From sequence record NC_018835.1: a stretch of 64,000 bases of DNA. The stretch is one strand, 5' to 3'. This document shows positions 41,214 through 42,569 of the stretch, piece by piece. The stretch's first letter is position 1, and each line of letters starts with the position of its first letter. The DNA comes from Escherichia phage NJ01. The notes under the pieces were generated by a model, which ran no database searches, had not been told where the DNA came from, and saw nothing but the letters and a program-made list of their open reading frames with translations. Position numbers and translations under genes: made by a program.

Positions 41214-42569
41214 TTAGTTATTTGTTTCCATGTCAAAAGAGATTCCACGACCCGCTTCATCGGCAAACCGAACTGTACGGGTTTGAGGCTGCAATACTTC
41301 AGGGTTATCAGCAACAAAGCGATCAGCGAGACTGCGGCTGACGGTCTCAGCTAATTCACCATGAGAAGGGATATTAAGATCGGCGAGATTATCAACCACA
41401 TCTTGGGCCACGTCTTCATCAGTCCATACAGCCCTAACAGGTGCGTTGAAACTCTGACCAGAGAACTGGTGACGGCTAACAGTCAAACCATTTGATTGAC
41501 CATTAGAACGTCTAGACAACCACTGCTCAAATGAATCGCCAGTAACACCAAGAGCTTCTTCAAAAGATGTTCTACGAGTAGAGCTTAGATTTCGTGCTTC
41601 GTTTGCTCGACGTCTTGCAGGGGCTACAAACACCCCTTCAACTGCATTGTGCCGATTAGGTTCATCTTCTCGACCAAGGAGATCTCCTCCTGTATTAGTT
41701 GTTAAGTTTGTTAACCCTTCAGACCAATACGCATGAATTCGGCTAGAGCCATGAAGACTTGACATTAACTGAATCTCTTCGTAAGGTATACCAAAGAATA
41801 GACTCATGTCTCGGTCAACACAATACGAGGGACTTGTCGTATCCTCAACATAAGTAACCTGACCCCGTTCATCGACCAGATGATTAATCGGTTGAGGTGT
41901 AGGGAGGTATCGAGAGTGGGCCATATATTGATATGCAACAGATGGAGCTGAGAATCTTAACACTTGTGAATTAGGCCACTTTTTGTGAACGTATCTGATT
42001 TCACGACTAGAAACAACCACAGGGCAAGGAGCGGTCATAGCTAAATATCCATGAGGAGTCATGAATAGGTTGTCAAGAGTCATCGCACCACGGCACATCA
42101 TAGGAAAATTATCCAATACCTCTTCAATAGAAGTAGGATAATTAAACATGAATTGAATGCGGGTTCCATTCCACTGAAACTCAATAATATCAGTGAATGT
42201 TAATTGAGAACCCCCAGCATATGATTCGTTTGTAGCTTCAGCAAGAAGGGATGCATACTCGATATCTTGTGATTCAAGCCACTCTTTCACATTGCTTTCA
42301 ATCTCTCGTCCAAGAGCTTGCCAATGATCAACTGTAGTGAAAGTATTTTGAGTCCCTGGCGTCTGTCCTCTGACAACGAAGATATCAATATCGTGAGGTG
42401 CTATGTTATTAAGCACGGCATCACGAACAGCCCCACCAGTAATGATAGGGCAAATGCCGTCTGGAATCAAGTTGTTGTTAATCAACTGTTCAATGAAGTG
42501 ACGACCAACAGTGATATCAGGTTGTTGAGCAACCTTATCTTCAATTTGGTTAATCGGGATAACAATCAT
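41214..42569 (-). CDS. nucleotidyltransferase of tRNA CCA-adding/poly(A) polymerase type with long unique C-terminal region
   Basis: Start at ATG 1 nt after exonuclease stop; head motif ITGGAVRDAVLNNIAPHDIDIFV (GGxVRD + DxD). Confidence 0.55.
   Translation of the reverse strand: MIVIPINQIEDKVAQQPDITVGRHFIEQLINNNLIPDGICPIITGGAVRDAVLNNIAPHDIDIFVVRGQTPGTQNTFTTVDHWQALGREIESNVKEWLESQDIEYASLLAEATNESYAGGSQLTFTDIIEFQWNGTRIQFMFNYPTSIEEVLDNFPMMCRGAMTLDNLFMTPHGYLAMTAPCPVVVSSREIRYVHKKWPNSQVLRFSAPSVAYQYMAHSRYLPTPQPINHLVDERGQVTYVEDTTSPSYCVDRDMSLFFGIPYEEIQLMSSLHGSSRIHAYWSEGLTNLTTNTGGDLLGREDEPNRHNAVEGVFVAPARRRANEARNLSSTRRTSFEEALGVTGDSFEQWLSRRSNGQSNGLTVSRHQFSGQSFNAPVRAVWTDEDVAQDVVDNLADLNIPSHGELAETVSRSLADRFVADNPEVLQPQTRTVRFADEAGRGISFDMETNN

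Follow-up and report, generated by a model that had tools for sequence, protein, structure and literature searches.

A class II-derived nucleotidyltransferase head in the replication module of phiEco32-like coliphages

In class II CCA-adding enzymes and poly(A) polymerase I, motif B provides the contacts to the ribose and the triphosphate, and motif D supplies the amino acids that act as a template in the choice of CTP and ATP. These enzymes (PF01743; e.g. PDB 1miv, 3aql, 3h37 and 6ibp) carry motif A, a GGxVRD stretch followed by DxD within 8-10 residues, along with motifs B, C, D and E. Gad2, a 400-residue anti-Gabija protein of SPbeta-like phages, is a predicted nucleotidyltransferase (NTase), and the Gad2 of SPbetaL7 is toxic on expression (bioRxiv 10.1101/2023.05.01.538930); a search for a solved Gad2 structure found none. 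Gp22 of phage fHe-Kpn01, described in its own paper as a small phage NTase with the PolyA_pol head domain, has class II CCA enzymes as its closest structures according to its authors and is toxic in E. coli (PMC7291057). Here we analyse a gene of Escherichia phage NJ01 that encodes a 451-residue NTase sharing motif A with the class II enzymes, located in a 64,000-nt stretch of sequence record NC_018835.1 (the window, taken at its whole length; coordinates in Table 1). The original prediction, made from the sequence alone, had described it as a CCA-adding/poly(A)-polymerase-type nucleotidyltransferase with a long unique C-terminal region, which could repair damaged tRNA 3' ends.

The protein represents a known kind of enzyme in divergent form, namely a Pol-beta-type NTase whose class II-derived head has intact catalytic residues, and which has lost class II motifs B and D together with the tRNA-binding domains. 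The basic observation is not a discovery, the NTase call being already present in public phage annotation. The 2.6 kb surrounding the gene share 98.8% identity with phage 172-1 of Escherichia, a phiEco32-like coliphage (Kuravirus, Gordonclarkvirinae), and 80-95% with ~95 further phiEco32-like coliphage records. RefSeq labels ORF93 of 172-1 'nucleotidyltransferase' and gp73 of phiEco32 'hypothetical protein'. The Kuravirus profile PHROG 12715, 'nucleotidyltransferase', matches residues 1-451 on its positions 1-457 (E 1.3e-258), and PHROG 1614 matches residues 36-155 (E 5.9e-8). NCBIfam, PADLOC and a PDB search with the single sequence gave no informative match, and literature searches found no functional study of the Kuravirus NTase.

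The open reading frame (ORF) is a real, expressed and conserved core gene, since full-length homologues occur in ~68 phage genomes, the ratio of nonsynonymous to synonymous substitution rates (dN/dS) is below 1, and the orthologue of phage SU10 was seen by mass spectrometry, with one peptide only (PMC4281155). The plus-strand ORFs within the gene are short and unsupported, and promoter, terminator and Rfam scans returned nothing above chance in or around it. In the record of vB-EcoP-XT32 (OR757435, 'partial genome', locus L019 815-2157), the annotation divides the NTase between two overlapping ORFs, 89 and 358 residues long; either the sequence contains an error, or a frameshift inactivates the gene in an isolate that is nonetheless viable.

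A structural model was obtained with AlphaFold2 from a 32-sequence family alignment; a single-sequence run gave a predicted local distance difference test (pLDDT) of 35 and was not used. Residues 1-285 were modelled at a pLDDT of ~80-96, bar the loops near residues 70-80 and 113-120, and the NTase alpha/beta fold is present. In a Foldseek comparison of this model with the PDB, the first 35 ranks were occupied solely by class II CCA-, CC- and A-adding enzymes (E 8e-6 to 7e-4). Within the head, G45-G46-A-V-R-D50 is followed, nine residues on, by D60-I-D62, so the original reading of GGAVRD (residues 45-50) and DID (60-62) was exact. At sequence level the NTase signature appears complete, with G45-G46 as the hG[GS] turn, D60-I-D62-I as the [DE]h[DE]h element and D127, within T-D127-I, as the candidate third carboxylate.

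The size of the family and the conservation of these residues were determined from profile searches. HMMER, run exhaustively over 1.84 billion representatives, retrieved only 32 proteins at E <=0.001; the distant members without a tail were reached only in this way, word-indexed homology searches giving close relatives only. The homologues in cultured phages are confined to Gordonclarkvirinae of E. coli and Shigella, and the remaining members lie on metagenomic contigs, the longest of 34-88 kb; a scan of IMG/VR for homologues yielded four loci only. Many members are 274-321 residues long and lack any long tail.

Conservation was read from two alignments of 26 and 32 partly overlapping sequences, with identities down to 21%. 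Ten positions are invariant, namely G45, G46, R49, D60, D62, F64, Q139, P156, Y193 and K197, while D50 is found in 26/26 sequences of one alignment and 31/32 of the other. Position 127 is aspartate or glutamate in 26/26 and 32/32 sequences, position 190 is likewise always aspartate or glutamate, and R189 is present in most members. The carboxylate triad, the loss of which on alignment would have spoken against the predicted enzyme, is therefore retained as two invariant aspartates and an ever-acidic position 127. Conservation reaches to about residue 210 across the family and extends in many members to a W282-S-x-G motif. Between the NTases of NJ01 and phiEco32, dN/dS rises from 0.10 in residues 1-210 to 0.35-0.38 in the tail, in keeping with purifying selection; among 43 Kuravirus sequences, 66% of core positions are invariant against 0-19% in the tail.

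Regarding the class II enzymes, the resemblance at sequence level does not extend past motif A. The Pfam PolyA_pol profile (PF01743) scored the protein at 18.2 bits, below the 23-bit gathering cut-off and over profile positions 3-82 of 126, and its homologues at 13.7-21.9 bits. Searching the PDB with the family profile retrieved a CCA-adding enzyme at E 0.0013, with the match running through motif A. A class II alignment was built from six sequences (E. coli Cca, PcnB and four phage-encoded enzymes), in which GGxVRD..DxD, RRDxTxNA and EDxxR..R..R are invariant; hhalign matched the NTase family to it over only 22 columns, all of motif A, with a probability of 81%. Motif A is the sole stretch that aligns with CCA-adding enzymes and poly(A) polymerases in this way. 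Motif B (RRDxTxNA) was not found in the family, the hhalign match stopping after motif A, and R49 of motif A is the only invariant arginine. Motif D (EDxxR) was not aligned by the profile-profile comparison either. Its topological place is occupied by the helix of residues 187-199, the sequence of which differs (R189-[DE]190-x-x-Y193-x-x-x-K197). Neither the model nor the alignments contain the neck, body and tail tRNA-binding helical domains. Global alignment with class II enzymes in MAFFT was considered unreliable for motifs B and D.

The family also has features of its own, which set it apart from class II. The DxD strand is separated from the core strands that follow it by an inserted helix of 20 residues and a loop, and the acidic position 127 and the set of Q139, Y193 and K197 are specific to this family; motifs B, C, D and E are missing. 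Lacking motifs B and D as well as the body and tail that bind tRNA, the protein is not a bona fide CCA-adding enzyme. The original assignment to the CCA-adding and poly(A)-polymerase type holds for motif A, and fails for the remainder, the PolyA_pol score being sub-threshold and class II similarity ending after that motif. The two checks proposed with it, a PolyA_pol profile search and structure prediction, gave a divided answer in the same way, with a score under the cut-off and a predicted NTase fold.

The C-terminal region was likewise redefined by the model. The original prediction held that ~350 residues following the head match nothing, as a long unique region; the fold in fact reaches residue 285, and the lineage-specific part comprises ~165 residues, mostly a disordered tail instead of a second domain. 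Residues 287-401 have a pLDDT below 50, and residues 402-449 form a helix and hairpin of low confidence. Residues 286-451 contain few hydrophobic residues and abundant Arg, Asn and Ser, with clusters of arginine, and the C-terminal 50 residues hold no invariant position among Kuraviruses. Compared with NJ01, phiEco32 lacks 19 residues of the tail and has 5 extra ones. The tails of EK010 (Suseptimavirus) and Bas89 are similar in length and unrelated in sequence, and in most family members the tail is absent or unrelated. The preserved frame and the dN/dS of 0.35-0.38 show that the tail is coding and under mild constraint; it is a fast-evolving disordered appendage under purifying selection. It would probably serve as a flexible tether or a partner-docking element, outside catalysis. 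Next to it, residues 211-285 (41715-41939) differ from phage 172-1 by ~31 substitutions in 75 codons, compared with 2 in the rest of the gene; judging from this pattern, the segment appears to be a patch of local recombination, the gene being nearly identical elsewhere.

The gene belongs to a four-gene block that consists of a primase/helicase, the 3'-5' exonuclease subunit of a split family A DNA polymerase, the NTase and a dCTP deaminase, so that both neighbours named in the original prediction were matched. The stop codon of the exonuclease gene lies one base before the NTase ATG. This block is kept in Kuravirus, Suseptimavirus and phage Bas89, and surrounds a 290-residue homologue (~25-29% identity) on a metagenomic contig of 87.5 kb; the locus was reported as fully syntenic across Gordonclarkvirinae in the BASEL paper (PMC11990801). 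The only breaks in this otherwise fixed synteny are HNH homing-endonuclease genes inserted right after the dCTP deaminase gene in Bas89 (L003 4334-4843) and SR02 (L018 4847-5356), an insertion that the window lacks. The polymerase subunit of the split enzyme corresponds to ORF67 of 172-1 (locus L006 48052-49896), ~9 kb away. The idea that the NTase might be the missing DNA polymerase of the phage was rejected, as this separate family A subunit is annotated in 172-1. Phage annotations also place ThyX and deoxynucleoside monophosphate (dNMP) kinase genes near the module.

Closer analogues than the CCA enzymes were found among small phage proteins. Foldseek against a viral structure library gave, as best non-self matches, proteins of 167-254 residues encoded by Autographiviridae and further phages, several bearing the annotation 'PolyA_pol head domain'; their template modelling (TM) scores, normalised on the target, are 0.55-0.65 over ~200 residues. 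These head-only NTases (PHROG 1614; LKD16, phiAS7, Providencia PS3) have the same head-only architecture as the Kuravirus NTase, lack the tail and share 13-18% identity with it. The Kuravirus NTase family differs from them in its particular insertions and conserved residues and in its restriction to Gordonclarkvirinae-like podophages. The toxicity of fHe-Kpn01 Gp22 and SPbetaL7 Gad2 when expressed suggests that head-only phage NTases may act on essential host molecules. The small Autographiviridae enzymes are better analogues of the present protein than the CCA enzymes, and Gad2 is so more weakly. The MenT and AbiEii toxins belong to a different NTase family (DUF1814) without sequence relationship to the Kuravirus protein; they are host-encoded with antitoxins, whereas the Kuravirus NTase has no such partner.

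Gad2 and the Kuravirus NTase are both phage-specific proteins of ~400 residues with an N-terminal class II-like NTase head. Precomputed matches to the Pfam Gad2 profile (PF26128) exist for 27/44 Kuravirus homologue clusters, 'weak' where marked, the nearest cluster being without one. With a Gad2 profile built from nine homologues (Supplementary Table 10 of the Gad2 paper), hhalign aligned the NTase family over 103 collinear columns (probability 90.7%, E 1.3e-6, score 50.8). This alignment spans the GG turn, DxD-h-F, the 'IQ' strand and the F-x-x-C strand, and stops at Gad2 residue 130. Reversed and shuffled controls scored 10-22, against the 50.8 obtained here, and Gad2 itself aligned with class II with a probability of 82% over 176 columns. 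We take Gad2 as the nearest analogue of the Kuravirus NTase that has been studied functionally, rather than as its family. A family assignment was not adopted, the signal being lost without motif A and the defining residues being different.

On the sequence evidence, the protein is probably active as a nucleotide-adding enzyme. As to substrate, product and biological role, we infer only the following. D60, D62 and the candidate D/E127 would hold two metal ions, and a nucleoside monophosphate would be transferred without a template, the donor being a nucleoside or deoxynucleoside triphosphate (NTP or dNTP). A hydroxyl group would accept it, most likely the 3'-OH at the end of a nucleic acid. 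The enzyme might then exert a middle-gene function tied to the replication module, either shielding phage DNA during its replication or inactivating a host defence or a host RNA. The explanation we tentatively favour, at somewhat less than an even chance, is thus that nucleotides are added without a template to the end of a nucleic acid or to some other hydroxyl acceptor, in the service of replication protection or counter-defence.

Several points weigh against this explanation. Genes for anti-defence are usually accessory and sporadic in their occurrence, and the Kuravirus NTase gene is part of the core, in strict synteny; the locus of Gad2 is an accessory one for anti-defence, that of the Kuravirus NTase the replication module. 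No substrate, product or phenotype has been reported for any member of the NTase family. The link to Gad2 rests mainly on motif A, since removing this motif reduced the family-Gad2 score to 15.5, equal to the best of 30 shuffles. The NTase of the window reached only 4.3 bits against the Gad2 hidden Markov model (HMM), other family members scoring up to 24.6. The family has the invariant Pro156 where Gad2 and class II hold an invariant Asp (in the F-D-[FY]-T strand of Gad2). The C-terminal domain of Gad2 is absent, and nothing in the NTase tail resembles it. Finally, the protein is acidic (isoelectric point (pI) 4.8, net charge -24; family median pI 4.8), which is unexpected for a nucleic-acid binder, yet class II heads are acidic too; charge was dropped as an argument on a nucleic-acid substrate for this reason.

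The role first proposed for the gene, that of a minimal tRNA CCA-adding or repair enzyme that mends 3' ends cut by host nucleases or toxins, with the Arg-rich tail replacing body and tail domains, could draw on a motif A nearly identical to that of class II CCA enzymes, on these enzymes being the best structural matches, on the arginine clusters of the tail and on the phage carrying a tRNA gene. This gene, a single tRNA-Arg(TCT) as the original prediction had noted, lies at 59231-59305 on the minus strand, 17 kb from the NTase. It ends in ...GGGGACGCCA (GCCA) and so encodes its own 3' CCA, which leaves no need for CCA synthesis, and the host possesses its own Cca. In addition to the undetectable motifs B and D and body and tail domains and the PolyA_pol score below threshold, bona fide phage CCA enzymes are a different and easily recognised protein, found in 493 phage records, mostly of large tRNA-rich phages. 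The genus Mydovirus includes both a true CCA enzyme and a Gad2-type NTase, so the two are not interchangeable, and many members of the present family have no tail with which to replace anything. The proposed tRNA 3'-end repair thus found no positive evidence, and we regard it as quite unlikely. A poly(A)-polymerase-like tailing of RNA, which would mark host mRNA for decay or block tRNA acceptor ends in the manner of MenT/AbiEii and result in host shut-off, appears decidedly improbable as well: the protein has no detectable RNA-binding domain and is strongly acidic, its conserved place in a DNA replication block does not suggest a role on RNA, and shut-off in this phage group is already ascribed to gp79 and the phage sigma factor (PMC12276001). 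A catalytically dead or structural accessory of the replisome, the tail of which would dock on the polymerase, the exonuclease subunit or the helicase, would fit the tight translational coupling to the exonuclease subunit, the conserved synteny, and the long disordered tail and aromatic C-terminal ends of many homologues, which recall replisome-docking tails. The retention of GG, D60, D62, D/E127, Q139, Y193 and K197 across very divergent members and the absent or unrelated tail of most of them make such a role highly improbable.

A link with DNA modification has been raised before. In BASEL phenotyping, Gordonclarkvirinae were unusually resistant to the restriction-modification (RM) systems tested without known modification or anti-restriction genes, and the same paper (PMC11990801) speculates on a modification of the DNA by dCTP deaminase and the NTase. 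The 64,000-nt window contains 15 EcoRI, 31 EcoRV and 9 EcoKI sites, which are not avoided, so that the resistance is not accounted for by a scarcity of these sites. A pathway shared with dCTP deaminase, in which the NTase would, for example, synthesise a non-canonical nucleotide or activate a base or an end of the DNA, by nucleotidylation or otherwise, would suit this resistance. It would also suit the position of the gene in a replication and nucleotide-metabolism module, beside dCTP deaminase and near ThyX and dNMP kinase, and the loss of the ribose-sensing RRD motif is compatible with the use of dNTPs. We know of no DNA-base-modifying enzyme with an NTase fold, however, and dCTP deaminase, ThyX and dNMP kinase together constitute an ordinary dTTP supply route. 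CCWGG occurs 2 times in the window for ~97 expected and GATC 146 times for 315, and BamHI, PstI, SacI, SphI, SalI, KpnI and NcoI sites are present 0-1 times each; this avoidance of CCWGG and of 6-bp palindromes argues against a blanket protection of the DNA. DNA modification in Kuravirus is not reported in the searchable literature, and we consider this pathway unlikely. Uracil-containing DNA of the PBS1 type was set aside as unlikely, a ThyX-type thymidylate synthase being annotated in the near-identical phiEco32 and 172-1. A bolder version of counter-defence, in which the NTase would be the factor behind the broad RM resistance of Gordonclarkvirinae, built into the replisome module, tethered by its tail to the split polymerase and nucleotidylating phage DNA (ends or bases) or a component of the host defence, is a long shot.

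Two further features of the region were observed on the minus strand. A Dps/ferritin-like 'DNA-binding protein' is encoded ~1.2 kb downstream of the dCTP deaminase gene, which is unusual for a lytic podophage. Upstream of the replication block lies a cluster of genes of the peptide- or metabolite-ligase type, comprising a GGACT gamma-glutamyl cyclotransferase, a glutamine amidotransferase, an Amidoligase_2 protein and a phiEco32-type COOH-NH2 ligase, together with several ORFs without a Pfam match.

Table 1. Features of the NTase gene and its surroundings in the window
Feature	Position	Strand	Remarks
Ligase-type gene cluster	45129-54701	minus	
Primase/helicase	43119..44909	minus	First gene of the conserved four-gene block
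3'-5' exonuclease subunit of split family A DNA polymerase, 184 residues	42571..43125	minus	Pfam DNA_pol_A_exo1, E 1.1e-8
NTase coding sequence, complete, 451 residues and stop	41214..42569	minus	ATG at 42569, stop at 41214-41216, 451 codons; orthologue of 172-1 ORF93 / phiEco32 gp73
Conserved NTase core, residues 39-210	41940..42455	minus	Beta-sheet head with family-specific long helix (80-100) and loop (108-124)
Motif A, residues 43-64 (ITGGAVRDAVLNNIAPHDIDIF)	42378..42443	minus	GG turn, R49, D50, catalytic-type D60 and D62
Beta-hairpin, residues 125-143 (FTDIIEFQWNGTRIQFMFN)	42141..42197	minus	D127 candidate third carboxylate; Q139 invariant
Helix motif SSREIRYVHKKWP, residues 187-199	41973..42011	minus	R189, D/E190, Y193 and K197 conserved
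Helical extension of folded domain, residues 211-285	41715..41939	minus	Closes with conserved W282-S-x-G
Predicted disordered tail, residues 286-401	41367..41714	minus	Arg/Asn/Ser-rich, repeated S-F-[DE]-like motifs, indel-rich, dN/dS ~0.35
C-terminal 50 residues	41217..41366	minus	Helix and beta-hairpin at low confidence, pLDDT 52-69
dCTP deaminase, downstream neighbour	40671..41204	minus	E 3.5e-34
Dps/ferritin-like 'DNA-binding protein'	38894-39505	minus	Pfam Ferritin, E 2.9e-7; PHROG 3636

Gordonclarkvirinae are common therapeutic-candidate coliphages whose molecular biology has barely been studied, and the NTase is one of the few conserved enzymes without an assigned role in their replication module. 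If its activity amounts to no more than RNA tailing, or is redundant with that of the host Cca, it would be an ordinary accessory enzyme. The role taken by a class II-derived head after the loss of its tRNA machinery would inform the study of the T7-like head-only NTases and of Gad2.

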